Positions 19,644 through 55,812 of a stretch of 64,000 nt of DNA are shown here, piece by piece. A model generated the notes under the pieces. That model was not told where the DNA came from. It did not search any database and saw nothing but the letters and a program-made list of their open reading frames with translations. Numbering within the stretch: position 1 is the first letter of the stretch; every line of letters begins with the position of its first letter. This DNA comes from Phyllosticta citribraziliensis (Eukaryota). The DNA lies in the NCBI RefSeq assembly GCF_038025025.1, contig NW_027117342.1, forward strand, positions 372,001-436,000. Direction: 5' to 3'. A program made the position numbers and the translations under genes.

Positions 19644-19976
19644 GGTGAAGGTGGTTGCCGGCGAAGAGGTGGTGTTGAGAAGAGTTGGATGATTGTGGCA
19701 GCGGCAAGATTACCCGGCAGCGGCGCCAGGTTTAAGCTTAATTAGCCGAGAAGAGAAGGTTGCCGCCGTCTCATCGCAACATGGCGCTTCATTCGGCCAC
19801 CACATAGGCATCCCTGCATGATAGCTCCAAACCGTCAGTCGCCGTCGTCATCTCTCTTGGCTGCCTACCGACACCACCACCACTCGAACCTAATCCAAGC
19901 TGTATTTATCCTCCCACACCCCCCCCCAAGACCAAGCTGAATCGCAAAGGCTGACCCTTGACCCGCCAGTATGATC

Positions 19977-21193: not shown

Positions 21194-21732
21194 TAGGGTG
21201 CGTGTAGTTTGGTATGATTTACGATTTATGAGACATGACAAACGAGTGTTGGCGGTGGCGGTGGTGGTGTCAGTGGCCGAAATGCTGATGGCACTGGCCA
21301 GTGTCTGTCTGAGCAAGAAGGCAAGGCGTGATGGCGGCGGCGGCGATGGAAAAAAGAAAAGCAGGCAAATAGCATACAAACATAACTCATGGATGGCGTA
21401 CGTACGTAGGTACCTGCACGAGTATACTAAGTGAGTAGCTTGAATCCAGAACAAGTCCCTTTGATGCGGGCTAGTCTGGGGTATGAGTATGAGTATGGGT
21501 ACTACATTTACACTCCACAAACACAGGTGACAGATGACAGCTATCGTACAATATAAGCTAAGCCTCCCTTCGTTACTCCCACCACCATGGCTTTGAATTA
21601 AGAATGGACATGAACGGGAACGTGAACGCCTTGCCTGCATGGGTGGGTGGGTGGGTATACACACACCGGTTTCCTAAGGTGGTGGGAAAGATAATCGATG
21701 GCCCTTGAATGGCGGGCAAAGCAGACAGTCAG

Positions 21733-25818: not shown

Positions 25819-27978
25819 GGCTGTCTTGTTGCAGGCTCCATGGAAGGTGAGGATATGGCTAGCCGGCGGACTCTACGGTGATGTCGGGAGCCTCAGAGTG
25901 CCAGCAGCCCATGGCCTCTGTGGAATTGTTGCGAGGTGAGGGAGTCGGGACGGATATCAAGGGCGAGGAGGGTCGGAAGGATGATGTCGGTGTCGGAGGT
26001 GAGGCTAGGGGTGTTTGGGTTTGAGAGGGCGCGGTCGGGTCGGGCAGGGCAGGGCGCGTGTTGAGGGTTGGGTTGGGTTTTGGTTGTTGGAGGTGAGGCA
26101 GAAGAAGCAATGGTCGCGTGGGGAGTCCTGGTCCTGGTCCTGGTCGGTCGTCAAGTCAGGTCGGGTCGTCTCTGGGCAAAAGAGCGGTCTGGGTCTGCGC
26201 TGCGGTCCGCGCTCCCAAACGAGAAGACCGACTGAAGCTGGCCGAGACAGGGCTGACCCAAGTCGCACCCATACCACCGCTCGCCAACATGTGATGGACG
26301 CTGACGGCCAGCGACCGCGACCACGTCAGTGCAGCGCGACTCGTGATGATGTTCTTTCTGGCCGTTGGCGCAGAAAAACAACTTTGGCGACGACCAGCCA
26401 TGTCCAGCCCAGCAACCACCCACCGCCCTACTGCTACCCGCCGTCTACCGTCGGCTCAGCCCCACGGCCCGACGGCATCAACACCACGCTAGCCACCACC
26501 ATGTCCGCTACCGTTAGTTACCTACCTCCTCCACGACACTTCAGCTGAACCGACACTACACCTTGCGAGTGGCTCCCCGACGCTGACGCCGCCGCCCGTC
26601 TGCACGCCGTCATACCCACCATGCGCTCTGCCGGTGCCCACCACCACCACCATCTCATCTCAGGCTATCATTGCGGCGGCGTTTGCATCTACTATCTCCA
26701 TTCAGCTACTTTTTCCAGTCGACTGCGCATGCTGTCCGTTTGCTGACTGCCCACCCATCATGTCGCCATGTCACGTTTTCCTGGCCGCACAGTAGGTACA
26801 GCACCAGGTCCCATTCTTTTCCGATACTACCAGCTCCGGCACCAAAGCCAAACGCGACGAGGTCGGGTACCCGGCGTGAACCGCTCCTCTCTCACGCGTC
26901 ATCTTTCAATTCCCCTCCCCCCCGGGCCTGCAGCACAGAAACTTTTCCGCCAGAGCACAGCCGAGCTGAACGAGCTACCCGCCATCATCCACGCTGCCAC
27001 TACTCGTCTGCCAACCTACAAACGACGGACAGACAGACAGACAGGCAGACATATAGACAAAGATAGCACGCCCTGAGGTAGCATCCATCCATCCATCCGT
27101 CCGTCCGTCCACGCCGCGCCGCTACGTCACGCCACAGACCCTTGCCCGACGCGCCGCGCCGCGCCGCCACGCCGGCTACCCACGCGTGGGCGTGCGTAGG
27201 TACATATGCATGCATGCATGCAAGCGAGCGAGCGAGCCAACGCGACGGCGACGGCGACGGTGGCGGCGGCGGCGGCGGCGGCGGACGCTCCGTTTGCTCG
27301 CTTGTCATCCGTGTGTAGCTACTCACCTTATCTTGTGTCTTCCCTGCGCTGCGCTGCGCTGCGCTGCTGTTTGTTGGCCGGTACGTAGGTAGGTAGGGAG
27401 GCAGGACGCATCACATGCCGCCATGACTGTTTGCTTCTTGCTACCTACCTATGTGAGGTGTGAGTCGATGCGCTGCGCGTGGCGGTGGTGGCGAGGAGAC
27501 GGATGAGGCGAGCGGCGTGCAGTCGTGGAGGAATGGACGAATGGTGGAGGAGTAGGAGTAGGAGTAGAAGAGAGAAAACGGGCTGGGGTTGGAGTATTGG
27601 TGTATTGGTGGACTAGCAAGCAACAAAACCAGCTGTATCCCTGTGACGCAGACGGGACCGAATGAGTCACATCGTCCAGCGCAGACGAGCCTCACCCACT
27701 GGTTCGCTGTACAGTGCCATGTGCCATGTGGTATGTATGTATGTAGGTAAATATTGCATGCAAAGATGCCTCGCTCGTCTATATCGCCACGATGGTCTAC
27801 TCTTTCCAAACATCGCTCCAAATAACCGCCCACTCGCACTCGCTGCTCCATGCTCAGACGCTCCAGGCACATCACGTCGTCTTCCTGTACACGTTGCCGC
27901 CGCCCGCACCGGCCTATAAGCAGAGTCAGGTCAGAGAAGCGCAACAAAAGCAAAAGCTTCGAACGACGACGCGCACGC

Positions 27979-29139
27979 TCAGCTCTTGCGGTGCATGACG
28001 GTCGCGGCAGCCTTGTTGCGAGCGGCAAAAACAAATCAGCCCAAGCCCTCCTGAAGAACGCAGACGACGCGACAAAGGTGGTAATCGTGACGTGCTTGCT
28101 CACCTGGTGGTTGGGGAAAATCAGCGTGTCGGCAATGACGACGTTCTCGCGGCGACCCGCCGCGAAGACGATGACTTCGGCTATGTCGTCTGCGGTCAGC
28201 GGCTCGACGCCCTTGTACACGGCGTCGGCCTTGGCCTTGTCGCCGTAGAAGCGGACGACGGAGAACTCCTGTCCAGCGCGTTAGCTTAGGAGTCATATTG
28301 CTGCCATGCATGCCCCGTGGGGGAGGTGGTGCTGCTGACCGTCTCGACTTGGCCAGGGTCAATCTCAATGACCCTTATGCGGGTCGAAATGAGCTCCCGC
28401 CGCAGCGCATCGGTGAAGGTGCGCACCGCCGCCTTGGTGGCGCAGTAGATGCTGCCGCCCGGGTAGCCCTCGCGGCCGGCGATGCTGCCCACGTTGATGA
28501 TGTCGCCCTTGCCGCCGTCGGGGCGCGCCTTGTAGACCTTGAGCACCTCTTGAGTCATATTGACCAGGCCCGTCACGTTGGTCGAGAACATGGTGTCGAT
28601 GTCTGCCTCAGCAATTTCAGGGGCCTGCGCGACGCCCTTGACAAGACCGCTGTTGCGCTGTCAGCCTGTTGATATGTACCGCTCGCGGGTTCTGAGGTCA
28701 CCCACGCGTTGTTGACTAGGACGTCAATGGCCCTCCATTCTTCCGGCAGCCTGCCCACGAAGCCGCGCACCTCGTCCGGCTTGGACACGTCGAGCTTGAC
28801 CGGCAGCACCTTGACGCCTTCGCCCACCTCTTTCTTAATCTCATCCGCCAGCTCTTGCAGGTTTTCGACCCGGCGCGCAGTCAGGATCAGGCGCAAGTCC
28901 TTGGGGCTGGTGCGGGCGAATTCGACGGCCGTGCTACGCCCAATGCCGCTCGAGGCACCAGTGATGAGGACCGTTTTGCCCTGAAGGCGCTGTGCCACGG
29001 CAGAAGACATGTTTGACGCTGTAGAAGCAAAGGCGCGGGCGCGGAGCGAAAGGTGGGGAAGAGCGCGGTGGGGTGTTGCGGTGCGAGAAGTGTGGAGGAG
29101 GGCGCGTGTCGTGAGGGCGAAACGGCGTAAGATGGGCAT
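27979..29139 (-). CDS. NADP-dependent short-chain dehydrogenase (YMR226C/YdfG-like 3-hydroxyacid/serine dehydrogenase)
   Basis: TGASSGIG, DVLVNNAG, NVGSIAG, catalytic YCATK, and IDPGQVETEFSVVRFYGD. Four exons, the last encoding AAATVMHRKS-stop (27979-28011). In-frame ATGs at 29139 and 29010. Confidence 0.9.
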
Positions 29140-37166: not shown

Positions 37167-38127
37167 ATGGAATTCCCTACCGCATCCATCGACGTTGCGC
37201 AGGTCAAGCTCTCGTGCCCCCCGGCTTGGAAGACCGCGTGTGAGGCCTCCGTCCAGATCATGGGAAATGGTCTCCTCGAACAGCCTTTCCACCGGGCTCA
37301 CCGTCTCGCCTGGGAGAAAGACTTCGACGACCAATGCGGCCACAACAACCCAAGCCGCAAGCGCAAGTACGACGGAGCTTTCAGGATAGACAACGCCTCA
37401 CAACGCAGCGGTCAAGCACAACTCGGGAGCATCTCAGTGAGCAGGGTCGGCAGCGGGGGCGGAGATGCGGGCTCTTTCGCCCACGGCAGTGGTCTGGCTA
37501 CGGTGAGCACGAAGCGGAAAAGGATCTCACAGCCTAGCTAATGACGAGCAGAGCTCTGTCACTGTGCCTGTATATACCGAGCAGATTTCCGAGCACAACC
37601 CTTATCCCGGCAACAGCTCTGACTTTGTTACTCTCGAGTACGACCCCAACGAGGAGCACAGTTCAGACTCCGAGTCCGACTCCGAAGAGGAGTACGACTC
37701 AGACGAAGAGTTGTACGACGAAGACTTCGAGTACGAGCCTGCCAACTCCCATCCTCCATGGACGCGTACGATGAGTCCCTCCCTCAATCCGTCCCAACAC
37801 TCGACACCGCCGGAGGTCTTGAAGTGGGTATACTGGCCGCCCATATACGACTCTCTGGATCACATTCGCCACAACATCGGCGCCAGATATCCTATGATAA
37901 AGATCGTATGCGTCAAGGCAGCCATGGCCCAAATCAGCTTCGTCGACCTCAGCACCTACAGGTTCCCATATGGGGCTATGGGAAGGCTGAGACCTCTGAC
38001 GCGTCCCCGGGCTCTGCCGTATCGCCATGTACTCCCTGGAAGAGCCAGAGGCCGCACGCCGAGCCCCTTGCAACAGGTGCAGGTGTGCAAATATCCGGAC
38101 GGGAGTCGAGACAAGCACGAGGGCTGA
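37167..38127 (+). CDS. array core-family member 4 (N-terminal WExDFD module, acidic tract, core domain)
   Basis: Intron 37503-37551 (GTGAGC..GCTAAT..CAG) joins the two ORFs in frame. AWEKDFDDQCG; HPPWTRTMSPSLNPSQHSTPPEVLKWV...YRFPYGAMG...TPSPLQQV. Confidence 0.8.
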
Positions 38128-38825
38128 GGACGGGATGGGGTCGGGGGTTTGCAACATCAAGACGAGCGGAGGGCTACATACTTTCAGCTTTTTCGTGTGC
38201 TCGTCATTCCAAGCTTCTCACTTGGCGGTCTTTAATGCAATTTTGGGAGCTCTTTCTGCGGTTTGCGCCTAAAATGGAAGCTTGTGTGAAGTCTTTTGTT
38301 GGTGTCGTATACTGATATTGTGCACCTTGTCTTTTTCATCGTCTAATTTGGCTCACAAAATACTTCTGCTTCTTCGATTGGCACTCTATCAAAATAAAAG
38401 TGCTCTCGACGGGAGTGATTGTTCAGTGTCGAGAGGGCTTGAGCAGGGCTGCGTCGAGCTGGTTGCCGAAGCGCACCGTATAATTCAAGGCAGAGTGAGA
38501 TTCTGGCGGTATTCTATTTCTTAGGCTCGGTGGATTATGAGGAGCCTGTGGTCGAAAAGCGTTGGCATCGAGTGAGTTGACGCAGAATTAACACTCGCCG
38601 TCGCCCACCACGCTCCGGACTGTTTACTGCCACCACGCGCACCCGAAATTCCAACCGCAGCACACTCCGAACTCTTTCCTGCTGCAACCTCTTCTCTCCA
38701 CTCAGGACCTACAGCCTCTGCCTTTTTCAGTGCACATCGACGACCCTGTCCTTCGTTTCGGAAACTTCGCCTTTCACGCTCTTCCGCAACTACAAAAACC
38801 TCACCCACCTCTGAAACATTCAAAA

Positions 38826-39719
38826 ATGTCTGCCGACCGAGAGCTCCGCGCCGACACGCCGTTCCGCGCCGCCACGTCGTTCCCCGAAGACCACCAGATA
38901 CGTCAAACTGATGCAGAAAGCCACGAGGCCATTGGCCGTTCTGGCAATGAGAGCAACGCCTCCGGAGAAGCTGGAGCAAGGCCAAGCCATGGTCCAGAGA
39001 CGAGCATCGTAACTTCAAGCCCCTCCAAGCAGTCCAGCACCGTTTCTGACACCTGATACCAGGCCGAAGAGGACGACGATGAGTGGGACCCGGCAATGCT
39101 CGAGCAAATGCTCCAACAAATGGTCGAGGAAGACGGAGACGACACCGAGACCGAAACCGACGACCGTCCCGGATGGGCCCTCATCCTGAGTCCTCCGCTC
39201 AGCACCTCAAAGCATTCCACCCCTCCCGAGGTCATGAGATGGGTCAGGTGGCCGGATGTAAACGATTCGCTCAGGTTTATATTCAACCGCCCTTGCCACT
39301 TCATTCGACAGGTTGCTTGCCTCAAGCGCGCTCTCTGGCTGGTTGACTACAATGTTGACCTTGACGCCTACCAGTTCCCGTATGGAGCAGAGGGAGAGAT
39401 GAGGGTGGAGAGGCCGCTTCCGCGCAGATATCGCGTGAGGAGGCAGAAGACTGGGCCGACGAGCCTGAGGCAAGTGGAGAGCTTGGTCTACAGCGCTTCG
39501 GACCTTCACAACATCTCGCTCAACGTCAAGATGCAACTTTGGGAGCTGGAGACCGATGGAGAGCCCCAGGAACACTTTGAATCTGAGAGTCCTGCAAGCA
39601 AAAGCGACGATGCAGGTCCTGCAGTGCCTAAACGAGCGGCGGAAGCCATTTCGACGAGCGAGGAGAGTTCCAGCGGTGTCGAGGAGTCCCAACAACGAAA
39701 GAGGGCTCGACACTCATGA
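38826..39719 (+). CDS. array core-family member 5
   Basis: A 54-nt stop-containing intron at 39009-39062 (GTAACT..CTGAC..CAG). RPGWALILSPPLSTSKHSTPPEVMRWV...ACLKRA...YQFPYGAEG...PTSLRQVE; ends QRKRARHS (NLS-like). Confidence 0.8.
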
Positions 39720-40469
39720 TCCGAGGGAAATCTCCACACTTAAGCTCGGCATCTCTCCAGTTGTTCGCTACGTTCCGAGACAACATGCCGCCGTTGAACC
39801 CATTTCGGGTGGCTGGCTTCCCTGAAACCGCCCCGGGCTTTTCGGCCGTCCTCCAACCAGAGTCCCAGGGCAACGCAAGAAAGTATTTGAGAGTTCAAGG
39901 ATGCTTGGCTTTCGTCTGTTGGTGAAGTGGCTTTTGAGCATTACCGCCTGGGCTTGCACTCACTGCTTTCGGGCAGAGCGAGGAGCAGGGACAAAACCTC
40001 TTTGGCTGAGGACGTTCCTGAAAGCCGTTCCAAGGTATGCTGAGCTGCGTCTTTAAAAATGGTGATCCTAACTAATGACTCGTAGCACCAGCTTCAACTT
40101 TCGCTGTAAAGCCACAAAAATGGGGCACCACGACACAACTTCAGACAAAGGAACTATTCCATGCGAAACGGAAGCTGTTTAATGGCGACAGTAACACTTC
40201 AAGAACCAGAGGCTTGTTCGGCATGTTCTGGGTTGGAATACGAGGCCTTCGTGTTTCGGGAAAAATGGAATGCTGGACTTTGTCTGTTCTTTGGGGACTT
40301 GTGCTTAAAATGCAACGCTCAGCACATAAATTCTTTTGGTATACGGCACAGGCGATAGCTACTACTTTGTTTCAAGGCTTCTTCGAAGTCCAATCATTCT
40401 TGGATGCTGCTCGATGGTATTGATCTCTTTGATCGCAACCGCTTGAGTGACATTCTGAGCCTTTTGACC

Positions 40470-40800
40470 CACGAGTAGCCAGTTTGGGCTCGAAGAGTAT
40501 CGTCTCGATCGCCAGGCAGAAGTACGAAAAGACTCTACGCGTACTTTCATCACGACCGGTCCTGCAAAACGACACGAAGAGCCCTCAGATATCGAAGAGA
40601 TCGGAGACGCGCAAACCTCGAGGAAAACCCTTGACGTCCAGTCCACGCAGCCGGCTTCCGAAGGCTTGAAGGCTACCAACTCAATCGATGCCACGGACCC
40701 TCTTGCTACAGAGCAGCCAGAAGGTTCCTTTTTCAGCCAAAAGTCCGATGGGGAGTTCGACGAAGAGCCTGAGCAGTTGACCGTCCAGCCACATGTGTAG
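40470..40800 (+). pseudogene. possible degenerate exon or relic of an acidic array gene
   Basis: About 110 open codons with no ATG (EEPSDIEEIGD...DGEFDEEPEQL), preceded by a possible GTATTG..CAG intron. No core motif seen. Confidence 0.25.
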
Positions 40801-42345
40801 AAGGTCGAAATCCAGTCCAGGAGCATCAGACTCTCTTTATCCTTTCGGCAAAGCCGACTTTGCAACCGCGCAATCGCTCAGTTCCATTGTCGAAGTAAAT
40901 TGAGCATTTCACGAAGTATCGCGATGGTCGATTCGCTCGGCACCCACGGTGGCCGTACATTGTTTTCAACATCAATTGCCGCAACCAGATTCGGTCAAAA
41001 AGCATAAACTACAGCAACCGCGAGAATCTTGACACAGAGACGCTTCGAGAAGGGCTGAAAGAGAACTCCCATAGAGTCTTACTGGGGCCAGAGGAGCAGT
41101 GAGCTTGCATCAGTCACTCGCGCACTCGGATGTCCCACGTTTTTCATAAGGTCCAACAGCCTACATGGGAAGGGGAAGGATGGATGTAATGTGTAAGGTT
41201 TCATGTTGATGTTTTCTTTAGATGGTCCTTTCTGGGTTTTACTTGTAAACTACTGCATAGAGCTTGGGATAATCTTCAATGGAGAGTTCAGAACCGGTTG
41301 ATGACTGCGGAGTGGCACTCTGAGAGTTGATACCAGACCGTCTTCTCAGTTCAGAGACTAAGGAGAATGACCAGTGGACATGCGGTATTATCAGCTGGCG
41401 GATCGAGACGCAAATATGAACCGAGTACTTTCACTGACGCCACAAAACTTCGTTGGTACTTACTGATCATATCTAGAATATGGGAAGCGACCAAAGCCGG
41501 CTTTACGGCCCCCGAGTCTAGCAGACACCTAAACAGTCCTTCGAACTTCATTCAATTGATTACGGGCGCAGCAATCAGTGTCAACTATGTTCACTTTTCA
41601 TTCTTTTATCCTTGATTTGCCCTTCCTCTCCGTAATGACAATCAAAGATTCTGCCAATTATTGGGCCTGGTGGTTGCTTCTCCTCCCTTATTTCAGCATT
41701 TTATATTACTTTGTGCGTAGATTTGCAACAATGCCCATAAAATTCCTTCCAGGAATGCTCTGTAGGGGTGTAGAACAAGACTGCACACCAATATCTAAGC
41801 TTAAGGAGCGAAATAGAGCATTTGGTGGTGACGTGCGTCAAAGACAGATTTCTGCGCCCCTGAAGCGCTGTATATCGAAATCAGTTTGTCAGAGTTGTGG
41901 CGTAACTGATGGGCACAGCCACGAGATGTCGAGCTGATTGAGCAGAAGACTGTGGCTCAGTGCTCAAAGCTCAAAGTGAATATCTGGGAAAGCAAGATGC
42001 ACAGCGTCGGCTGTGATTGGTCAATGGGATGAAGTGAATCAAAGTGAATTCACACCGAAGTATTGTTGTGCAAGGCCGCTCGCCATCTTCTTGCACCTCT
42101 AACTCCCAAATTCATAACAAACCCTCAAGCCATCCATCTCTCAGCTTGCTGGCTCCACACTCTTTCCTGTCTTTGAAGTTCTGAGCAACTCTATCTCTGC
42201 CCTACCTCTCTTGCAACCCATTCGACCTCGCTCTGTCTTCTTGTCTCAGCTCTCTTACCAACAACCGGCTTTTCTCCAATCGACTCCGACACAGCAACTT
42301 CGTCTTCTTTCCCTCTCGAAGTTCCGTCAATTCCCTGTATCCACC

Positions 42346-42993
42346 ATGTCTGCGGGCTACCCATCGGCTTTGGCTGCCTCTTTGAAGGACACCGACGATT
42401 GGGAGGAAGCGTTCCGCGTCTGGTGCCTCGACGAGGAGGCTCACAAGGTGGATTTCTACGCCTTCATCGACTACCCCGCCGATTGGGAGCTCGAATTCGA
42501 CGAGCAGTGTGGAGAGGACGACGACGACGCGTATGACTGGGCCGAATACCAGCCTCGCCCGCTCAGCCAGGAGCTCGACTTCGACAAGGAGGACGATCTT
42601 GACTTCGATGATGAGGTCTCAGACGATGAAGCAGGCGAGGACCCAGTTAACAACCGCCGCGACTGGTTCTCCGCCACCGCCACGGACTGCAGCTACAAGG
42701 TGCAGGACTCCGACGACGCGACCTCCAGCATGATCACGATCGTCCCGACTGCCGCGCAGAACGATGAAACCAGCTTCACCGAAGAAACTTCTCAGCCAGA
42801 ACTTTCCACCGAGTCGCAGGCCATGCTTACGGAGGAGAACCTGGTCGAACACGACGACCACATGCCTTCGCAGGACACTCACAACGCTATCGGCTCAATT
42901 TTCGACATGATCGGTCAGCTGGAGGCCCTGAATGAGCAGATGGCGGCCAATTTGGCCAAGACCAACCGTGAGGCTGGCAAGGACGAGAATTGA
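42346..42993 (+). CDS. array DW/WExxFD-module family member A (very acidic, no core domain)
   Basis: Kozak CACCATG; DDWEEAFRVWC...DWELEFDEQCG...SSMITIVPT. Confidence 0.8.
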   Translation: MSAGYPSALAASLKDTDDWEEAFRVWCLDEEAHKVDFYAFIDYPADWELEFDEQCGEDDDDAYDWAEYQPRPLSQELDFDKEDDLDFDDEVSDDEAGEDPVNNRRDWFSATATDCSYKVQDSDDATSSMITIVPTAAQNDETSFTEETSQPELSTESQAMLTEENLVEHDDHMPSQDTHNAIGSIFDMIGQLEALNEQMAANLAKTNREAGKDEN

Positions 42994-43962
42994 ACAAAGC
43001 TCGAATGTAAGCCGTGCTCCTTCTCCTAGTCCATTTGATACTCACATTCCTCCACCAGACGGCCGTCTCCGTTGTTCGGAGACAAGGTGGGACCATGGAT
43101 TCTCATGATTCTCGAGGCGTTGCGGAAGTGGAGGAACAACATGATGTCTTCGGGGTATTAGGGCATTGGTTGTCTTCATCGGGCAGGGAGTACGGGAAAT
43201 TGCTTTTGTTCCTTTGTTTTGAGATTCGGGACTTGGTTTTTGGCATACTAAGAGCTTGTAATAACTACTTCTCCTTCTTTTGCTTCTCCTTTCAGCAGTA
43301 GATGAGAGTAAACGGCGTTGGATGCTCTCGTCTTGAGACGGGGGATGATGTCTCATCAACGGGGCCAGCAGGCAGAAGAACACATCCCCAATGATGTTTT
43401 ATAGCCACAATCGCTCTCGTGGAAGGTTCTTTTTGGCTGCAGTGACTTCTATGTCAAGCAAAATTGTAGGGCAGTGACCTCCATAAAGGCATCGCGCTTC
43501 ATCCAAAAGCCGGGGAGCAGAGTCCATGACCGACGGAAAAGGAGAAGCAAGAAAGGCTATGGTGTCTGGCGACGGCACGGTCGATTGCAAGCTGTGGATT
43601 GTTTACAAGCGCGCCAAATCGGGCCTGTACTGAAGTGAGCTTTCGGCCTGAGGCTGCCATCACATTGTTCATGCTGTGGTTGACACACGCTCGCGCAGTC
43701 AGTGTTTACTTTCCTCGCTCGACGTACCGCGCCAGACCTTCCCATGTCAACTTCCAAACCTCCGACCCACGCTCTGCAAGCGCGACTGTTTACTTTTCGA
43801 GACTCCCACCTTCCCAACAACAATCGACCATCTTGGTAGACCCTTCAACTTCCCACCGCTAAGCACGACTGTACTCTTTGCTCAGCTTGGTACATCACGC
43901 TGTCTCCGCCGAGCGCCCCCTTTTGGAAGAACTTCAATCTCCTCCTTCTTTCGCTTTTCACG

Positions 43963-44983
43963 ATGTTCTACGACCGCAAGTCTCACTGTTTCTTCTCCCG
44001 CCGACTGCTACCGGTCAATCAGCAGTCGCGTGTTCCTGTTCCCCTGGGCTCAAGGCATGACCCATGGAAAGACTGGGAGGAGGACTTCCGCGAGCTGTGC
44101 AACGCCGATTCGTTGACTGTGACATTGCAGCCACAGGCCAACGAGGGGATTTCCAGTTGGGAGACCGACTTCGACGAGGTACTTCAACTGGACTTTGGAC
44201 ATCTCGCCGGTCAAATAAAGCAATGTGGCTGACCTCGACTAGGTGTGCGGTCTGGACCACGATGTCCGCGATGTGAATTTCGCACCAAAGGCTAATGGCG
44301 ACGACGAAAGCGATCATCCAACTGCTTTCTCCATCTCAGTTGACGATTCCTTCTCTGTGAGCACTGCTGGTAGCTGCAACGCCAACCATGGCTTCAAGGA
44401 CTCCATGTCAAGCATGGTCACGATCGCACCAACCATGTTCTCAATCAACGAACGCCAAGTGGAGCAGGCAACGGCGTCCTTTCTCAGTCCTGTGCAGGAT
44501 TTTGAGCGTATTTTCAACGTCTCTGAAAGGCGGCACTCTCCCCAGCAAAACTTCAACGCAGAGATCCAATCGGATGGCTTGCCAGAGCTTCCAGAGGACG
44601 CATTCGGTCGTAATTACACTTCGCTACAAACGGAGCCCGGCGTTCTCCTCTTCGATATGAAATCTCAGCAAGGCTCCGAAGAGTCAGAGAGCACCGGCAT
44701 CGACTCAAGTTCCACGGCCAGCTTCCCGACCAGTACCCTGCAGCTTACCAACGCGCTTGTAGAATGCAATCTCCCGATTGTCATCTCGAATGTTGAGAAA
44801 CCATACTCAGAGCGCACAGTGGAAGGTTTGGAGGCATCGAAGGTACTCACCGCGAAGTACCACCGTGAGGGCGCGCGTTCTCCCATTTTCTACGCGATTT
44901 ATCCACGGGAGCATTCGAACGAGCGGGTCGCAGCTATGCTGGGGCTTGAGGTATGGAGGACTTGTTGGTCGAAGCCGCCTTGA
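43963..44983 (+). CDS. array DW/WExxFD-module family member B
   Basis: Intron 44179-44242 (GTACTT..GCTGAC..TAG) restores WETDFDE|VCG. Also KDWEEDFRELC, SSMVTIAPT and C-terminal GLEVWRTCWSKP. Confidence 0.75.
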
Positions 44984-45642
44984 GCAGTTGGCTTGTCGAC
45001 GTCGTGTTTTCGCGTTCGGTGGAGGAATGTCCATTTTCCAGCGACACATTGTACAGTATGGCCGGGCCTTTGTGCAGGATGTGGCTTTCAGGGACTGGAA
45101 GATGGCCAAAGGAGACAAACAGGGCCGTTTCCATTGTCGAAATGACCTGCTGTGATGGAGCTTTGTCGAGAGCTGGTTCGCTCTTTGGGAAAATGTATCA
45201 CGGGTAAGGTCCTGGTCATTAATTACATTCGAATTCATTGCTTGAGCTCCTCTCCCATTGGTTCAATCCGCTCCCCTTCTCGGAAAGAATTCGCTGCAGA
45301 CGTTGTTGGCTCATAGAAGCACAAAACCAGGACTTGGACGAGCGATTTCGCTCTCGTTTGTGCACGTCTTCAACACCACTCCCTGGAAACAAGCTGCGAT
45401 CGCGGAGTGACAACCAAGTGGACAAACGGCTGTTGCCAGCAATGCTTGCTTGGCGCTTGCTCTCACTTTCCATGGCCACTTCTTCGCCCTCCCTGAGTTT
45501 AAAAACCCCGACGCATCTTCTGAACACAACCTCACCCAGGCATATTCCTCCATCTGTATACCACGCTCATACTACAGCTTCTCTTACCTTCTCGATTCCT
45601 TTCTCGTAACCCCACCACAATAAGGCCTTGCCTCTTTACGCA

Positions 45643-46224
45643 ATGGCCTTCATGAAGAACGCAAAGACTGCCGCCCTCGATCAGTGGACTTCGATTGACT
45701 GGGACGACGAGCTCAGAGATCTTTGCATCAAATCCAACCAAAGGAATTTCGAGCTCGCCGCATTTCTCGACACTGAGGAGTCTCAGCAAGACGACTCTTG
45801 GATCTTTATGAACAAGCCTGGCAATTCAACAGGCCACCAGTATACTTCGCACAACGACATAGATCGGGTTGATGCTCAAGATCTACGAAAGCTGGAGGGA
45901 ATCCCGCCTAACGCCACACCTGATGCTGCGTACCAAAGCATCATATTTACCAGCTCTCACAAATACGAGCGAAGCTGTGGCAAGAGCTTGGAAAGCACCG
46001 TATCTAGCGTCACCCTCTATACCGCCTTTTGTAACACGCTTGACTCCGTACGTCAAGCCTACAACGATGCCGTGACGACAGAGGTTCCGCTGGGTAGTGA
46101 GGAGGAGGCAAAGGAGCTGGAAGAGAGCAGCAAGACGCCAGCCAGAATAATCGACATGGTGAACTCTGTTGGCATGTTCTTATGGGACTGCTGGAACGAG
46201 CGGCCACTGATCCTCAATGCCTAG
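45643..46224 (+). CDS. array DW-module family member C
   Basis: IDWDDELRDLC, SSVTLYT and C-terminal GMFLWDCWNERPLIL. Confidence 0.75.
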   Translation: MAFMKNAKTAALDQWTSIDWDDELRDLCIKSNQRNFELAAFLDTEESQQDDSWIFMNKPGNSTGHQYTSHNDIDRVDAQDLRKLEGIPPNATPDAAYQSIIFTSSHKYERSCGKSLESTVSSVTLYTAFCNTLDSVRQAYNDAVTTEVPLGSEEEAKELEESSKTPARIIDMVNSVGMFLWDCWNERPLILNA

Positions 46225-46736
46225 GCATCACGTTGCGGAGTGAGCGGTGGATCATCTGTTTCCTTGGGCGGCATTTTGTCAGAATAGCTTTTACACACAT
46301 TCTTACTTTGGAGTGTCAAATTCCGTTTCTGGTTGATCGCGAGCATCGGGGCGTTGAGGCATCATCGCGTGAAGCATTACTTAGCAAGATTATCAAATGC
46401 AAAATGCGGGCTGCGTACCTTGGTTCATTTTTGACACTCCCATGGTAGATTAACACTTCTGGCACCCGACCGAGTTTTGAAAGTTGGCGCGAGCTTCTGT
46501 TGCTGCATGGCAACCAAAGCTGTTCGGCGCGCCGACGCGTGAAGCAACTGCGGCGCAAAAGCACCAACTACGCACGCGTCTTCAAAACTAAAACCTCAAC
46601 CTCAACCTCCACATATCGAAAATTCCAGTTTCGACTACGCACATCTCTACTTTCGGTTTCCATTCAACCTTACACTCAACCAACTTCGACTCAAATCTTC
46701 CCGTTTCCTCCAACTCCCACCGTTACCAACGACGCA

Positions 46737-48752
46737 ATGTCTCAGTCTACTCAGAACATGTTCGACGTGTCTGCCAGCAAGCCCGGCCTCAGCTGGGCTG
46801 ATGAAATGAATGAGTTGGCTGACGCTGACGAGTCTGGCCCTCTCCCGACGGTAAGCTTGAGCGATCTCTTCAAAAAACTTGCCTCGTGCTAACTACGAAG
46901 CTAGCTGCCCGAATGGACACCACTCCCGGCATTGAACCTGGCTGAAGAGCATGGAAACCCATCGGCTCAACCCGAAACCCTTGATGCTCCGTCCACCGAC
47001 CTCTTCGATACCAACACCTTCTACACTGAAGACTCTGCACCCGAGTCGGGAGAGGAAACAACCAGCGAGCCTGGAACCGCGGGAGTCGACGGACATTATG
47101 CTGATGGAAAGGCCTGCGGCCAAGTAGACAGTGATGAAGAGCCGCTAGCAGAGACTGAGCAGCCAGACTATTCCAGCAACGAAAATTCTTCTTCCGAAGG
47201 ATACGAATCCGGCGCATCTCAGCAGTCAACTTCCTCAGCGTCTACCGAAGACAACAACCCTATTTTGGAAGATGAAGACTCCTCAGAGAACTACTACACG
47301 GAGTCGCAGTCGGAGAACGAGCGGCAAGACACCTTCAGCACGATTTCGACCTCCAATGAGTCTGATCCCGATTCCGGCTCCTCTGAGCGCGAGGTGGATG
47401 CTTCTTCAGCGTCTGGGGACGACGAAGACCCTTCCTTCGCACCTTATCACCCAGGATGGACGAAACACCTCAGCCCCTCAATCAGTCCTCACCATTCAAC
47501 GCCCCCGGAAGTAAACAGGTGGGCGTTCTCGCCTCCCATCGGATATGCGCTTCAACGCGATTTGGACTCCTTGTATCTGGACGAAGACTGTCCAAACCTT
47601 GCAAAGCCAGCAACTTTGTCTCGTGCGCTGCTGCACACTGACAGCGATGGATTGAGTGGGTATGCATTCCCGTACGGCGCTCGGGGATTGAAGAGGCCAC
47701 TTCCGAAGCTTTTCGACCGCAGAAGGCCAGAGATTCGTCAACAATCTCAACTCTCGCATACCGAGGTGGTAGATTACAGCCAAGAAGACCTGCACATCAT
47801 CAATACGAAGGCTGCTTCACATTTCAAAAAGCATTACATTGAGGCGGCCCCAGAAATCATCGACGCAGATTCCCAGGTTTCTTACCAGTCGTCTTCCGCG
47901 CCGTCTTCCGCGCCGTCTTCCGCGCCGTCTTCCGCGTCCGACCAAGACATTTCGGAGTTTCCTTCAGGCCAGTCCGAGGATGGAGACGATCTATGGTCCC
48001 CCTTGACAGAAGAGGAGAGCCAAGGCGGTAACAGCAGTGTCGAAAGTGACGATTGCGTTTTTCAACGCGTCCTACTCAAGGAATCAGTTTGCAACCGGGG
48101 CTGCGCGAGCGAACCAGACCTTGAGGTCTACGATATCTTCAATCTCGACAACGAAGAGCGTAGTCACGCCCACTTGACCAAGGCCGCGGCACGCCGTCAA
48201 GATCCAGTAGCGTATCTCGACCTCGCGACAACTTGTTCAGCTGGAAATCAGAACTTCCTTGAGGAGCAGAACGGCTACGATTCAAGTGTCTCGGATACCA
48301 TCGACAGTCTCGAAGCTGAAGATACAGACAGTATTACGGCAGCGGTACAAGAAACCGGTATTATTGTCGAGCTCCCGCAATATTTGGCTTCAGAGTCCCA
48401 ATCCTTTGACAGTCTGTCCAATATCGATAGTATCTCTGTGAGGGGCACTAGCGACGATGGAAGTAATGGGGAGCCTGCAGAATCTAGCCAACTCGATAAC
48501 ATCTTGGACCTTGCGATCGCCACCGCCCTTCCAGGAGCCGACTTTGTCGAGGACTTCAATGATGAAGACCACCAGCGCACCCACTTGATTGCACCAGTTC
48601 AAGACCTTGGGAACGATCTCGAGAAGGACCTCCAGCATGTGGAGGACAAGGTTGGACTAGGCGCTGGGTTCTTCGGAGGAATTATGGCAGCGGGCAGGTT
48701 CCTTTGGAATTGCCTCAACGACAGGCCCCTTGTGCTCGACAACCCCTGGTAG
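46737..48752 (+). CDS. array core-family member 6 (longest; acidic/Ser-rich, with the C-terminal FLWxCxNxRP module)
   Basis: Intron 46851-46904 (GTAAGC..GCTAAC..TAG) is in frame. YHPGWTKHLSPSISPHHSTPPEVNRWAFS...YAFPYGARGLKRPLP...RQQSQL; ends GRFLWNCLNDRPLVLDNPW. (SSAP)n 12-nt repeat at 47891-47936. Confidence 0.85.
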
Positions 48753-49178
48753 GGAGGCACATGGGAAGCTTGTATACTAAGTTCGATTGTCTGTCTTGAG
48801 CCGAATTTGTCAGTCAATGGCCTCATTACTAAACCATTATTCTTTACTTCTGTGAGGCGGCCTGAAGCTTTTTTCGCTGGGAGCAGTACTCTTGAATTGT
48901 CCCTCCACAATGTCTGGAGCTTTGATGCCAAAAAATTCAGCAGCGTGGGCCTTGAAGGGAAATATCAGAGCGTGAATAGTCGGAAATCCGAGCGGTCCTT
49001 TCCATGTCACTCTGGCTGCCCAGCGGCGTATCTGCAATCTCTCTTCCAACAACGCAACCTCAGCAGATGACCAACACCGCCCAGCCTCCTTCTCTGTACC
49101 TTTATTTTCACCACTGCACTACCTGTAGTCCTTCATAACCAACCGTTCCTGGGTATATATTTCCCTACTCGTGGCAAA

Positions 49179-50087
49179 ATGGCTAACACTCAAGCCTACC
49201 ACGAGCAGTTTGGCTGGGCCAACGAGCTGGAGAAGGACGAAGAAGCAGGTTGCGCTTCACCGGTAAGTCATCTGCTTTTCTGAGGGCCACAGCGGGTGCT
49301 GAACACGAGACTCAGATGCAAATATGGAGCTGGGAGTCTCCAGACTGGAGCATCGGACCAGACGAGTACCACCGGGAGCCTAAGGTTGAGAAGTCGTCTG
49401 GAGCCGAAGTACCCATGTTGTCCAAGCCAATCGAGGACGACGAACGCGACTTCTTCGTCTCAAAATGAGGTCCACAGCGGTGCTTCGAAGCAGAAACAAG
49501 CCGACAAAGTCTCTGTAGATCTTGAAAGTATGCCTTCGACTTCAGCAAGCGGCAACACCGACAGCTCTTCGACACAGGAAACTCCAGTCTTCCAATTCAA
49601 CTCCAAGCCGTTGCCGCGGGACCATCCAGGTGGGACGACAGAAATCAGCCCGCCATTTAATCCCTTACACTCCACGTCGCCAGAAGTCAGCAAGTGGGTG
49701 CATTCAGACGGCGTTCGAAGACATCAACAACAGCCAAAACCAAAGCCTCAGCAGACCTTTTGAAACATCGCTACGAGGCCTTGAAGAAGGGCTACGGCGG
49801 CAACCTGGGCTGCAATGACTCGCTAACCCACACGCTGGACGTCGTGACGCGCATCTACGGCCTCGAGAAGCAGCTCCACGAATGGAAAGCCTCACTCCCC
49901 CCGGGCCTGTCCCGCGAGGCTGCGCGCCGCACTTGCTCAAACCGACGACTTGAATACCCCGGGATATGCGTATCTGCACGGCCCGTGGGGAGTCAAGAGA
50001 CCGCTCGCAAACACCTTTCTTCACGGGCGCCCGGAAACTCGGCAGCAGTCTCGAGTGTGGCATTGCGAGCTTGTTGGCGATGATTAG
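49179..50087 (+). pseudogene. array core-family member 7, disrupted paralogue of member 6
   Basis: First exon and intron resemble member 6 (GWANELE..P|GTAAGT). Apparent frameshift near 49445-49468. DHPGGTTEISPPFNPLHSTSPEVSKW is followed by in-frame stops (49761, 49845), then RLRAALAQTD..GYAYLHGPWGVKRPL..RPETRQQSRV. Confidence 0.7.
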
Positions 50088-51625: not shown

Positions 51626-52175
51626 AATGGAAAGATATTGTGAAAGAAGATGGGAGGGAGTTGGGGGTTGGGAGTATCACACCCGTCTGATGAAAGCCGT
51701 ACGAAAGACAGTGGATTCGCGCTGCCCAGTATTCAAAGGCCCCAATGGAATGTTGCCAACGCCTTTCAACTTTCGCTGCTGAAATCAAATTCGCACGTTC
51801 GCACATGCGTGTGGTGCTTCAGGTCCTGTGGTCAGTTGAGGCAGGTCTCCTGGTGTAGTTCGTGAATGTTCAATAGCGGGTAGCTGACATCCAGGTTGTC
51901 GTCCTTCTGTAATATTAGGCTCGCCGAGACCATGATGATCGCCTCGGCGGGACCGTCGATGTTCGCTCACTTCAGACTTCCTCCTCTTTCCCTGCCTCCG
52001 CGAGACCCGGGCCAGCCTCGTCGTCCAACGCGCTCTCCACTCGAACTCACGACAGAAAGATCTCGTTGCAGCGGCACACAGCAACGCTCCTAACGTAAGT
52101 GATCGCCCTCCCTGCCGGCCACTCCTGACGCTAACGGCTCTCGGCCGCCCACAAGCAAAGAACCCGTCCAAGAAG

Positions 52176-52802
52176 ATGTCGAGCCCGGAAAGAGGTGAAG
52201 AAGAGGCTGCCAGGCCAACGATACCCGAGCTCCGTCTGCGTCCCCCAAGGTGGCGGCAACAAAAAGACGACGAGCAGACTGAAGGTCCGCAGACGCAAGC
52301 CACATTGGAAGAATCAGTAATGCTGACCTACGAAGAACAAGAGACACCTGCGCCCGAAGAGCAGCAGCGCCTCTCACCCTCGCTCGAGCCACGCAAGTGC
52401 GCCACAGCGCCCGAAATCTGCGCCTGGGCCAGTAAGCCCACCTTCATCCAAGAGCTGCTCGACCTGCACGGAATCATGAAGAGAGGCAACAAAGGCGCGC
52501 AAAAGGCCGAAAACGTGCGCAAGTTTGCCTGTATCAACAGAGCCTTCGCAGCCGGCTGGTACCAGACGCCCTTGGATGCCGAATACCAGCTGCCCCTTGG
52601 TGCGACGGGAGAGAAGAGGATGAGGCCCGAGCTGGAGCGCGGCAGTCAAGGCTTGAAGAGGCCCTGGGATAAGGATGTGCCGGCGGATAAGGACATCTAT
52701 GTTCCGAAGGGCGTGACCAGGGAGCTGCGGTATCGTCCGCTGGTGGGCAGGTGGTACTATCCGAGCCCGTCTCGGCTTAGTCAGGAGTTCAAGCCAGAGT
52801 GA
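52176..52802 (+). CDS. array core-family member 9 (subfamily B)
   Basis: RLSPSLEPRKCATAPEICAWAS...RKFACINRA...LPLGATG..RP.LERGSQGLKRPWDKDVP..YVPKGVTR..RP..GRWYYPSPSRL. Probable 5'UTR intron at ~52095 (GTAAGT..GCTAAC). Confidence 0.85.
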   Translation: MSSPERGEEEAARPTIPELRLRPPRWRQQKDDEQTEGPQTQATLEESVMLTYEEQETPAPEEQQRLSPSLEPRKCATAPEICAWASKPTFIQELLDLHGIMKRGNKGAQKAENVRKFACINRAFAAGWYQTPLDAEYQLPLGATGEKRMRPELERGSQGLKRPWDKDVPADKDIYVPKGVTRELRYRPLVGRWYYPSPSRLSQEFKPE

Positions 52803-53757
52803 AGAGTTGAGAGATTGACGAGGAGCATCGACGGCGTCTGGGTTCGAGACATCTGGGTGGAAAGTCTGGTGGCGTATTACTTTACAAAGATCAAGTACTC
52901 GCGCCATGGAGCAAGTCATCCAGCTTTGGAATGTATTCTTCTGTCGCAATAGCGTTCGTCCGAGTGGAAGCGGACAGCATCAGACGGTTTACATTCAAAC
53001 ATATACCTGATTGGGATAGCATCTTGACCTCTTTCTTGTTGGCTTCAGGCCATATTTTATGCTGCAATTTGATCTCGTTCCTTTCTTCAGATCCGTAAAG
53101 GCAGGCCCAAATGGGTCATCAATCCGCATATACACCGGGCGAGGTGGGTCTTGGATTATGGCAAAGTTCTCGTTGACAGCGAAATTTTCTCGGAGCGTGA
53201 AGTGTTAATTTGGACTTGTGGTGTTTGGACGGCCACCTGAGCATCGGTCGAGGAGCAGGCGCCGGAAAGCACCAAAAGTCGTCTGCCATGTCAACAAACA
53301 CCACGCACTCGACCTCGACATCCTCCAACATCCGCATACACTCCAACTCTTCTGCAACCACCACCACTGCGAATTGTGAGGTTATACGGCTGTAACCATC
53401 CCTGAAATCTTGCTCACAAACCTTCGACTTTCCAACAAGACAGCTGACGGCTTCATCAACTCGCTCTCCAAGGTACGTTCAACCTTGCAGCCATTTTGAC
53501 CTTCGGCCGACTCGACTCAGCAAAGTCCCACGGGCGAGTCGGCTCTTGACCTCGAGGAAAATCTCAATCTTGCCTCCTCTGTGCCGCGCTATCCGACCCT
53601 ACGCGTCTCACGGCATGTCGAGACGCGCAGCTGTTTTGATCTCAAGCTGACTTGGCTCAGCATTTCCTCTGCAGGCCGATCGACACCTCAGCGCGAGAAC
53701 AGTCTCGTCCCACCCAGTCGCGGAAATCCTTCTCTTTGCGATTCTCTTCTCAACATC

Positions 53758-54518
53758 ATGTCACCCCCCGAGCAGTTCGCCAACGCCGAGACCAGCAAGA
53801 CGAGCGAAGAGAAAGCTCCTGAGATGGAGCACACCGATAGCGCTGAGAAAGACATGGAAGAACTCAGGACCATGTTGGCCAAGTACGGCGTCGAGCTGCC
53901 GGAGGACGACGATGACGCGACAGTCATGGACGACCAGGACTTCGAGAAGCTGGACCAGTTCTACGAGGACTGCTTCGACATGTCCGCGGGTATTGAAGGC
54001 CCTTGCGAGGAAGAGCCTGACGACATTGAAGGTTCGTAACCGTCTCCTCCGCCTACCGTGCCAGCACTGACTTGTTTCAAGACTTCAAGAAGCCGGGCCT
54101 CTCCCCATCTCTCAAGCCAGAGAAGTGCGCGACCGCACCCGAGATCTGTTACTGGGCCAGCAGCACCCAGCTGAAGCAGGAGTATCGACAACTTCGCGCA
54201 ACCCTCGTATACGACAACGATCTCTCAGACGACGCCGTCCGCAGGTTCGCCACGATCAACACCGCATACAAGCGCAGCTGGTACCCGATCCCGGCGGGAG
54301 AATGCCTTATGTACCCAGACGGCGCCACGGGCAAGAAGAGGCCGCTGCCCAAGCTCCCGCGTGGTTGCAAGGGTCTGAAGGAGCCCTGGGACGACGACAT
54401 CCCGACCAACGACTACGTTCCCATGGGCGTCAGTCGCAAGCGCGAGAACAGGCCGGCGCGCGGACGGTGGTTCTTCCCGCAGCAGTCTGGTCTCCGCTAC
54501 GAAGTCAAGTCGGAGTAG
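53758..54518 (+). CDS. array core-family member 10 (subfamily B)
   Basis: Acidic exon 1 and a phase-1 intron from 54032 (GTTCGT..CTGAC..AAG). GLSPSLKPEKCATAPEICYWAS...YPDGATGKKRPLPKLPRGCKGLK...YVPMGVSRKRENRPARGRWFFPQQSGLRYE. Confidence 0.85.
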
Positions 54519-55111
54519 ACCAGAGGGCAGCTTCAGAGAGCGGGTGACAGTGGGGGAGGTCGGACCCAAAATGATGTCGGAAGGAGACCAAAGTTGGCTT
54601 GCTGTGACATACGGAAGGATGAGTTGGGCAGAAGAGATGTTGAGAGAATGTCAGAGTTGACAGACAGCAACCTTGGAAAGAGTCAATACCTCATGTATAA
54701 TAGTGGACCAGGCTGGATAGATGGTGTTGGATACCCAGGGCTGAATTGGTAGTCAGTAATGAAAGATCTCTCAACGAATTCGTCCTCAAATCCAGGCCAT
54801 GTTGCTGCAGTGCTGCCCATGTTGCGCAAGATGGGCTCGGCAAAGATTCCGTGCCTGATGAGGCAATTGAAGTCGACGGAGTTTCGAAAGGGGCTCGGCG
54901 TGAGGGCACAAAACCGCCATGAAGGTCCACCAACTCTAACACTCATCAGCTCGAAAGCCATTACGACTGCAACCACCACGTTCTCGGCGTGACCAACCCG
55001 TTCCCAACTTCACCACACAGATCATCCGTAAGCTCTTGAACTTTCTGCAGCTGCCACAACCACCTTCTCAGCTTCTCACTGATTGACCTTTCAAAGATCA
55101 TTTCCTCAAGC

Positions 55112-55812
55112 ATGTCTTCCTCAAGCATGTCGAACAGGGAGGCTCAGAAGACCGACGCCGAGGCCAAGCTGGCCAAGTCGAAACACACCCTGGGGTTGCT
55201 GAAGGATTTCAGCAGGGCCATCTTGCAGCAGATCGAGAGCGTCGAGGCTGAAATCAAGAAGGCCGAAGAGGACGTTGCGCGCGCTACCAAGCGAGAGGAG
55301 CGGGCCGAAGGCCAGGAAGAAGGTTCGTGACAATAAAAGGTCAAGCGATTTGGGTACTAATGAGCCAGACAGACGAAGAGGAAGAATTTCGCCTGTCCCC
55401 CTCCCTCGTCCCCGACCAATGCGCCACGGCTCCCGAGATTGCCCTCTGGGCACGCAGCGACGACCTTCTCGATGAATTCCAGGACATGCGGCGGCTCATA
55501 CGCGCCGGCGTGTACAACGAGGACGTGCTCCGCAGGATGGCCATCATGAAGAGGGGCTACGCGCAGACCTACGTGCTGCGGTCTTACGAAAAGTACGACT
55601 TTCCGCCGGGCGCACTGGGCACGAAGCTGCGTCCCGCCAAGTGCCCTCGCGGCTGCATCGGACTGCGGACCAACAAGGACAAGGATGTTCCGAAGGACGA
55701 GGACGTGTACACTCCGATGGGTGTGAGCCGCAAGCTCGAGAATCGCCCGCAGAATGGCCGCTGGTATTACCCACGGCCGTCTTCTCTTCGCAATGAGTAC
55801 AAAGCAGAGTAG
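55112..55812 (+). CDS. array core-family member 11 (subfamily B, coiled-coil-like N-terminus)
   Basis: Phase-1 intron from 55323 (GTTCGT..CTAAT..CAG). RLSPSLVPDQCATAPEIALWAR...YDFPPGALG..RPAKCPRGCIGL...YTPMGVSRKLENRPQNGRWYYPRPSSLRNE. Confidence 0.85.

Follow-up and report, generated by a model that had tools for sequence, protein, structure and literature searches.

A tandem gene family of Phyllosticta citribraziliensis whose core-less members are probably deletion products of a three-module ancestor

How three genes that lack the defining domain of their neighbours come to lie inside a tandem array of that family is the question raised by a stretch of 64,000 nucleotides from Phyllosticta citribraziliensis (contig NW_027117342.1, positions 372,001 to 436,000; the whole stretch is hereafter called the window). 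The window has a guanine-cytosine (GC) content of 0.48-0.68 and short GT..AG introns, and between about 29.7 and 56 kb it carries some ten plus-strand paralogs that share, by tblastn and alignment, a common core of the form ..LSPSLxPxxxSTPPEVxxW...FPYGAxGxKRP... The genes g42346, g43963 and g45643 lie within this array and have no core. An original prediction, made from the letters of the window, held that domain shuffling links them, as a second acidic family, to the core family, and that the cluster may derive from an ancestor with an N-terminal module, the core and a C-terminal module. The analysis reported here favours a different account of the trio, which is probably a set of core-deleted paralogs within one lineage-restricted tandem family and not a second family.

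A profile built from nine window cores matched 64 of 1,835,955,588 library proteins at an expectation value (E) of 1e-3 or less; six of these are the window's own, and the remaining 58 are the basis of all counts from other genomes given below. Thirty of the 64 matches were checked, and the named ones came from Phyllosticta, Botryosphaeria, Neofusicoccum, Diplodia, Lasiodiplodia or Coniosporium and bore only the labels 'hypothetical' or 'uncharacterized'. Going by these matches, the core family is restricted to the Botryosphaeriales and Coniosporium. The Botryosphaeriales includes pathogens of citrus and woody plants as well as endophytes. No Pfam family rose above cut-off across 15 open reading frames (ORFs) of the cluster, and no description of the core family was found in the literature searched at the level of listings and abstracts. 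In the database, ORFs 45643 and 42346 have as relatives only Phyllosticta hypothetical proteins (52-75% identity), and relatives of g42346 and g43963 were found in five Phyllosticta species only.

Modules shared by proteins with and without the core

The trio does lack the core, as had been predicted: a core hidden Markov model (HMM) of about 130 positions gives E 0.56 with g42346 and no match even at E <= 1000 with g43963 or g45643, and a tblastn search with the core has no match from 39.5 to 47.4 kb. All of the strings quoted in the prediction are present where it placed them. Six-frame regular-expression scans of the whole window locate DW[ED][ED].[FL]R..C at three sites (42397, 44071 and 45697), WE..FD[ED] at three sites only (37311, 42484 and 44158) and the C-terminal pattern at two (46171 and 48693).

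The element that recurs near the N-terminus, the N-motif, follows the pattern [FW]-G-x-[IL]-x-W-[DE]-x-[DE]-[FYLM]-x-x-L, is often followed by a Cys and is sometimes duplicated. Many core-family N-termini open with ..F-x-x-G-L-E-x-F-G-x-I-D-W-D-x-E-F/Y-E-E-L.., for which the Phyllosticta form is ..Q-W-G-x-I-D-W-D-D-E-L-E-E-L-C... The corresponding regular expression matches 21 of the 58 proteins from other genomes, 20 of them inside the first 80 residues, and its background is five matches per 103,369 residues of window ORFs, three of the five being cluster genes. Window HMM scans were run against 1330 window ORFs with models built from other species' sequences only. The N-motif model, drawn from 20 proteins, recovers the exon-1 ORF of g46737 at E 2.5e-7 (the spliced protein at E 1.1e-6) and g45643 at E 2.8e-5. 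The earlier description of g46737 as a core gene with a C-module is correct in both parts and incomplete, since exon 1 also carries this N-motif. A model of six 'ELC' motifs matches g45643 at E 3.9e-8 and g43963 at a whole-protein E of 6.7e-4, with domains at residues 37-47 and 65-74.

Two W-acidic motifs are present in each of g42346 and g43963, and the second of these ties both genes to a core-bearing one. Similarity was assessed by local alignment against 500 composition-preserving shuffles: g42346 and g43963 score 92 (shuffles 37.5 ± 6.0) and the N-terminal part of g37167 scores 61 with g43963 (30.5 ± 5.0), both reached by 0/500 shuffles, and the same part of g37167 scores 52 with g42346 (28.4 ± 4.9), reached by 2/500. 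Nine sequences of the three orthologous groups are collinear over their first ~60 residues, in which DWEExFRxxC (or A-W-K-T-x-C-E in the g37167 group) is followed by a spacer of ~20 residues and then by W-[ED]-x-[DE]-[FY]-D-x-x-C-G, with W, D and CG invariant. Within DWEEAFRVWC of g42346 the residues D18, W19, E20, F23 and C27 are invariant in five of five aligned sequences. An HMM of other-species orthologues of g42346 and g43963 matches the WEKDFDDQCG site of g37167 at E 7.2e-5; in the reverse direction, a model of the g37167 orthologues P0026 and P0023, which keep the site as WDVDYDEQCG and WEVDYDRMCG, matches the second motif of g43963 (E 0.0042) and g42346 (E 0.19). Both the shuffles and these reciprocal HMMs uphold the predicted WExxFDxxCG link between core-bearing g37167 and g42346/g43963. 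The claim that splicing restores WETDFDE|VCG in g43963 also stands: the intron is canonical (64 nt, gtactt..gctgac..tag), and the splice is used by four of five annotated orthologue models (P0073, P0113, P0114 and P0115), P0112 being different. Because hhalign aligns the second motif of g42346 with the canonical N-motif of 18 core-family N-termini (P 0.0013) and because P0019 of Neofusicoccum has two N-motif copies, we read both W-acidic motifs of g42346 and g43963 as likely copies of the family N-motif.

At the other end, the C-tail has the form G-x-hydrophobic-hydrophobic-W-x6-P-L-x-L. The C-part of g46737 and g45643 score 75 in the shuffle test (35.7 ± 5.6; 0/500), a C-tail HMM of five other-species proteins matches g46737 at E 1e-15 and g45643 at E 2.6e-11, and a broader model of 12 sequences does so at E 9e-13 and E 1.4e-9, which bears out the predicted C-terminal module common to the two genes. 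Neither model matches any other window gene, g43963 and g42346 giving no match at E <= 10. Among the proteins from other genomes, 11/58 match the C-tail HMM, and another five have a strongly hydrophobic end. In a simple hydropathy scan, made with no trained predictor, a Kyte-Doolittle mean of about 1.6 or more over 19 residues was taken as the tail-anchor threshold. The means at the extreme C-terminus are 2.08 in P0019, 1.86 in P0043, 1.80 in P0033 and 1.73 in both P0032 and P0046, and the best 19-residue mean of P0042 is 1.18.

Three further pairings are marginal, namely g45643 with g42346 (32/500 shuffles reach the score, p about 0.07), g45643 with g43963 (21/500) and g43963 with the C-part of g46737 (28/500), so that the shared motifs stand out clearly against shuffled proteins in four links and not in these three. 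The weak C-module that had been ascribed to g43963 is lost on the last of these values and on its lack of a match to either C-tail HMM. SSVTVPVY, pointed out in g37167, is not kept in the orthologues P0026 and P0023. The SS(M/V)xT motif, said to be common to the trio, is kept within both the g42346 and the g43963 group; in g45643 its SSV is lost in the orthologue P0002.

Origin of the core-less genes

The combination of N-motif, core and tail occurs in 15/58 core-family proteins from other genomes, of which P0042 of P. citricarpa is a compact example of 342 amino acids (aa). Residues 4-50 of g45643 align with residues 1-47 of P0042 (E 4e-6) and residues 155-192 with 300-341 (E 5e-12), and nothing aligns between. 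Locus tags 554606, 554607 and 554608 of P. citricarpa denote the g43963 orthologue, P0042 with N-motif, core and tail, and the g46737 orthologue, and the merged gene models P0070 and P0113 hold a g43963 orthologue and a three-module gene head to tail. The window has the same order (g43963, g45643, g46737), and g45643 and P0042 can therefore be taken as positional orthologues. Outside this genome the core-less form is found in P. citrichinensis only, where P0002 (204 aa, 52% identity) is the sole orthologue of g45643 with the same form, and the simplest reading of the alignment is that the core would have been lost by internal deletion in the lineage of g45643 and P0002. In P. capitalensis (KAK8211961-964) a g46737-like gene is followed by three genes with N-motif and core, two of them with the tail, and accession 968 is g37167-like.

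A quick maximum-likelihood tree of the core was made from 62 rows, that is 59 library matches (P0006-P0065 minus the repeat protein P0061) and three window members, to the exclusion of P0066-P0069. Three-module proteins make up one Phyllosticta clade (support 96) and two Botryosphaeriaceae groups (96 and 91), with P0019 standing apart and core-only lineages between them. The tree requires at least nine changes in the presence of the N-motif and at least seven in that of the tail, and recurrent loss of modules appears a better explanation than independent gains of one motif in one position. As far as this tree can be read, the three-module form is old. The proposed ancestor of three modules, divided by duplication and deletion, is thus supported by three-module proteins in separate groups of the tree, by g46737 itself and by the three-module slot in which g45643 lies.

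In the account that we consider probable, the ancestor would have comprised an N-terminal acidic amphipathic helix, a long disordered linker, either acidic or rich in Ser, a folded helical core of ~110 residues and a C-tail. Tandem duplication and internal deletions would then have left g46737 with all parts, g37167 with the N-module and the core, g45643 with the N-motif and the tail, and g42346 and g43963 with two copies of the N-motif and no core. Its footing is the homology of the modules, the lack of the core in the trio, the positional orthology of g45643 and the conserved motif islands, which the analysis shows. Loss of modules after tandem duplication is an ordinary evolutionary pattern.

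Several points weigh against this account. The general N-motif HMM gives only E 2.9 with g42346 and E 2.3 with g43963, though these matches sit on the motifs; g42346 has no match to the 'ELC' HMM, and the 'ELC' subgroup was picked after the targets had been seen, so that the putative link of g42346 to the N-motif runs through g43963 and g37167 and through the hhalign alignment, at a probability of 18%. The positional orthology of g45643 would follow from the order of locus tags and accessions and from merged gene models, not from aligned DNA. The hydrophobic tails of Botryosphaeriaceae are equated with the Phyllosticta C-module from their position and a W-x6-P in the joint alignment, and neither jackhmmer nor an HMM restricted to Phyllosticta reached these tails; the tails of the window are also less hydrophobic than a typical membrane span (best 19-residue means of 1.27 in g46737 and 0.68 in g45643). 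The core tree is midpoint-rooted, with weak support at 21 of the 59 inner branches. Finally, one RNA-like contig retains the g46737 intron, and spliced minus-strand transcripts lie over the 3' half of that gene.

Among the alternatives, it is unlikely that the core-less genes are decaying remnants, either pseudogenes or non-functional ORFs, in which the shared motifs have not yet eroded. Divergence is indeed fast (52% identity for g45643, 5-35% in the middle of g43963), the core-less form of g45643 has the narrow distribution given above, and the core of the neighbour g49530 is interrupted by four in-frame stops; yet ORFs of 193-318 codons are intact in two to five species, an RNA-like contig extends over the 3' part of g42346, and conservation is focused on the motifs (75-85% identity), which points to selection there. 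Alignment of orthologues places the highest identity on the motifs and low identity in the linkers: residues 21-40 (85%) and 301-318 (72%) in g43963, 41-60 (80%) and 181-200 (75%) in g42346, where the remainder is at 20-70%, and 141-193 (75-80%) in g45643 against P0002, where the remainder is at 30-65%.

True domain shuffling, in which an unrelated acidic family would have gained N- and C-modules by recombination, exon shuffling or fusion through read-through from a neighbour, looks decidedly improbable. Outside the motifs the sequence of the trio is disordered and diverges fast, and it has no family signal of its own; three-module proteins are widespread and on deep branches, and g45643 sits in the slot of a three-module gene. 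The N-motif of g46737 does occupy its own 38-codon exon, and neighbouring genes are merged in P0070 (698 aa), P0113 (554 aa) and P0110 (1139 aa), which makes fusion transcripts conceivable; modules and exons otherwise fail to correspond, as g45643 is intronless, the g43963 intron splits a motif and that of g37167 lies far from its motif. The terms 'domain shuffling' and 'second family' in the original prediction accordingly give way to module loss inside one family.

That the similarities are chance matches among acidic low-complexity proteins is scarcely credible, and for the main links it is refuted: the C-terminus of g43963, SSVTVP of g37167 and the pairing of g45643 with g42346 are at chance level, but the three main links are reached by 0/500 shuffles, other-species HMMs recover window genes at E 1e-4 to 1e-15 among the 1330 ORFs, and every carrier has the motifs equally far from the N- or C-terminus.

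Gene models, transcripts and surroundings

The models of the five genes discussed above and the positions of their modules are collected in Table 1.

Table 1. Positions of the five genes and of their modules in the window
Feature	Position	Strand	Description
g37167	37167..38127	+	exons 37167-37502 and 37552-38127, intron 37503-37551; 303 aa; N-module type B and core, no C-tail
g37167 WEKDFDDQCG	37311..37340	+	residues 49-58
g37167 core	37744..38106	+	core HMM E 1e-43, residues 177-297
g42346	42346..42993	+	single exon; 215 aa, 28% Asp+Glu; two W-acidic motifs, no core
g42346 first W-acidic motif	42397..42426	+	DWEEAFRVWC
g42346 second W-acidic motif	42484..42513	+	WELEFDEQCG
g43963	43963..44983	+	exons 43963-44178 and 44243-44983; 318 aa; two W-acidic motifs, no core
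g43963 first W-acidic motif	44071..44100	+	DWEEDFRELC
g43963 second W-acidic motif	44158..44251	+	WETDFDE / VCG, interrupted by intron 44179-44242
g45643	45643..46224	+	single exon; 193 aa; N-motif and C-tail, no core
g45643 N-motif	45697..45726	+	canonical, DWDDELRDLC
g45643 C-tail module	46105..46218	+	..ARIIDMVNSVGMFLWDCWNERPLIL
g46737	46737..48752	+	exons 46737-46850 and 46905-48752; 653 aa; three-module member of the window
g46737 N-motif	46788..46820	+	LSWADEMNELA, encoded in exon 1
g46737 core	47442..47789	+	core HMM E 1.6e-37, residues 218-333
g46737 C-tail module	48621..48749	+	..GLGAGFFGGIMAAGRFLWNCLNDRPLVLDNPW; tblastn with g45643 E 2e-5

The model of g37167 is letter-identical to library protein P0008, and an RNA-like contig fuses the final eight letters of its exon 1 to position 37551 onward. 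The gene g42346 is identical to P0003 and has orthologues in P0004 (75% identity) and P0005 (57%), both from Phyllosticta, and g45643 is identical to P0001. For g43963 the C-terminus is the same in P0073 (318 aa), P0112 and P0114; P0115 equals the model over 272 residues, after which a donor at 44843 drops the last 46. None of the contigs covers the g43963 intron. In g46737 the intron (46851-46904) reads gtaagc..tgctaac..tag. The 615 codons of exon 2 include no Met ahead of the last 30, and exon 1 is therefore needed; the N-terminus and the splice junction agree with those of the orthologue P0022. The linker of g46737 includes, at 47880-47940, a short tandem repeat that encodes SSAPSSAPSSAPSSA. 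In public models from related species, adjacent cluster genes are merged into single proteins of 554-1139 aa in P0070, P0113, P0110 and P0140, a sign of either read-through transcription or faulty annotation in these clusters. Annotation should list g42346, g43963 and g45643 as relatives of the core family; several public models in related species merge or mis-splice these genes.

On the minus strand at 47907-49500, RNA-like contigs from two runs skip 48071-48118 and 48795-48889; of the runs listed for this sequence, none is on record as RNA. The skipped segments have CT..AC ends, which are those of GT..AG introns on the minus strand, and there is therefore a spliced antisense or convergent transcript over the 3' half of g46737 and onward into the downstream sequence. 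Contig depth over 47907-49500 declines leftward from 229 to 18. Two contigs of run X1 follow the window to 42920 and to 48663, within g42346 and g46737, and then continue with 255 letters of unlike sequence; neither break is a canonical splice site, and the 30-letter continuation past 42920 is absent from the whole window. Possible causes of these breaks are contig chimerism, a difference between strains or a paralog at another place.

Elsewhere in the cluster, the segment 40001-42000, between g38826 and g42346, has a GC content of 0.477 against 0.53-0.56 nearby and no long ORF, and may be a degraded or repeat-mutated remnant. The core member g49530 (49530-50060, plus strand) has its halves, ..HSTSPEVSKW.. 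and ..YAYLHGPWGVKRPL.., in one frame with ~60 codons that include the four stops between them, and is either a gene with an unusually long intron or a pseudogene. Further downstream, g51939 and the core members at 54069 and 55363 (51939-55812) form a separate, well-supported clade of 12 rows, without N-motif or tail, that has an extra C-terminal block, ..PRGxKGLKxPWDxDVP..GVSRKLENRPxxGRW(Y/F)YPxPSxLRxE(Y/F)KxE. The cluster is flanked at 19021-29139 and 61195-63225 by ordinary conserved genes: Pop5/Rpp14, a PI31 proteasome regulator, a homologue of the folliculin-interacting protein (FNIP; an ORF of 1379 codons), a short-chain dehydrogenase and a Git3-like G-protein-coupled receptor.

Predicted structure, possible roles and known systems

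AlphaFold2, given a 50-row alignment, models the core of P0042 as three helices and a short strand pair at a predicted local distance difference test (pLDDT) of 94-96, and places helices at the N-motif (residues 17-26, pLDDT 62-72), at 253-276 and in the tail (315-333). The core of g46737 modelled alone has a mean pLDDT of 86 and a predicted template-modelling score (pTM) of 0.66. Searches of the PDB by sequence with profiles A1 and A4 returned nothing below E 0.08. Fold searches of the PDB gave as best values Foldseek E 0.65 and VIA Z 3.6 for the P0042 model, and Foldseek E 7.7 and VIA Z 4.4 (52 residues, root-mean-square deviation 3.3) for the g46737 core model; the ESM Atlas yielded no usable match for P0042. 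The modelled core is thus without a convincing PDB match, from which a new fold does not follow. A putative fourth shared helix (..QLEAL..) emerged when jackhmmer was run from residues 241-285 of P0042, at sub-threshold E values of 0.03-0.9 and with shuffle p values of 0.011 to 0.08 over nine comparisons, and is suggestive only. Prediction of a complex between the g46737 core and residues 1-70 of g42346 scored 0.00 and gave no verdict, in a run made without controls.

The cluster amounts to a natural dissection of an unstudied family, with versions that have or lack the core, the N-motif and the tail, and the conserved islands (the two W-acidic helices, the ~110-residue core and the C-tail) flag where function is to be sought. 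The helix of the N-motif would present W, F/Y and L on one face and is proposed to be a peptide ligand, and the tail would be a localisation or membrane element. It is possible, and we put it forward tentatively, that the N-motif belongs to the peptide-binding short linear motifs and that the tail is a localisation signal, so that the core-less proteins, reaching the same ligand or the same place without the activity of the core, would serve as competitors or partial adaptors of their full-length paralogs. A more specific version of this proposal is highly speculative: the family would consist of Botryosphaeriales-specific, C-terminally anchored adaptors whose WxxxF/Y helix docks a conserved receptor, of which the N-terminal domain of a PEX14-type protein at peroxisomes or Woronin bodies is an example, and the trio would be competitive decoys that titrate the receptor and so tune the full-length members.

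Four known systems resemble the family in part. Readings of the N-motif as a two-phenylalanines-in-an-acidic-tract (FFAT) motif, an LC3-interacting region or Atg8-interacting motif (LIR/AIM), or a kinesin-light-chain W-acidic motif were considered and dropped, as key positions mismatch these patterns. The WxxxF/Y motifs of PEX5 and PEX20 bind PEX14 and PEX13 (PMC8172628). The family resembles PEX5 and PEX20 in having W-x-x-x-F/Y within an acidic disordered N-terminal region, sometimes repeated; in the family a conserved Cys is close by, and the pentapeptides WEEAF, WELEF, WETDF, WEKDF and WDAEY match at the level of the pattern. The differences are that g45643 has WDDEL and g46737 WADEM, several members having L or M for F/Y; that no tetratricopeptide repeat (TPR) or PEX7-binding region is present, the 15 cluster ORFs having no Pfam match; and that the Cys follows the motif here, whereas in PEX5 and PEX20 it lies within a separate N-terminal block. 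The resemblance is confined to a loose pattern.

With tail-anchored membrane proteins, the homologues from Botryosphaeriaceae (P0019, P0043 and P0033) share polar N-termini and a most hydrophobic 19-residue stretch at the extreme C-terminus, followed by only 0-10 residues, whereas the tails of the window carry charged residues and have the lower scores given above for g46737 and g45643. The activation-domain helix of p53 is acidic and amphipathic, with aromatic residues at i, i+4 and i+7. In the family, W-D-A-E-F-E-E-L likewise puts W, F/Y and L on one face, and residues 17-26 of P0042 are modelled as a helix, with moderate confidence; the likeness would lie in the helix pattern only.

MicroProteins and dominant negatives of the Id type are small paralogs that arise by duplication and domain loss and that keep an interaction motif without the functional domain. 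The core-less trio may be compared with them, on sequence alone, in that it has kept the motif and lost the domain of its full-length relatives.

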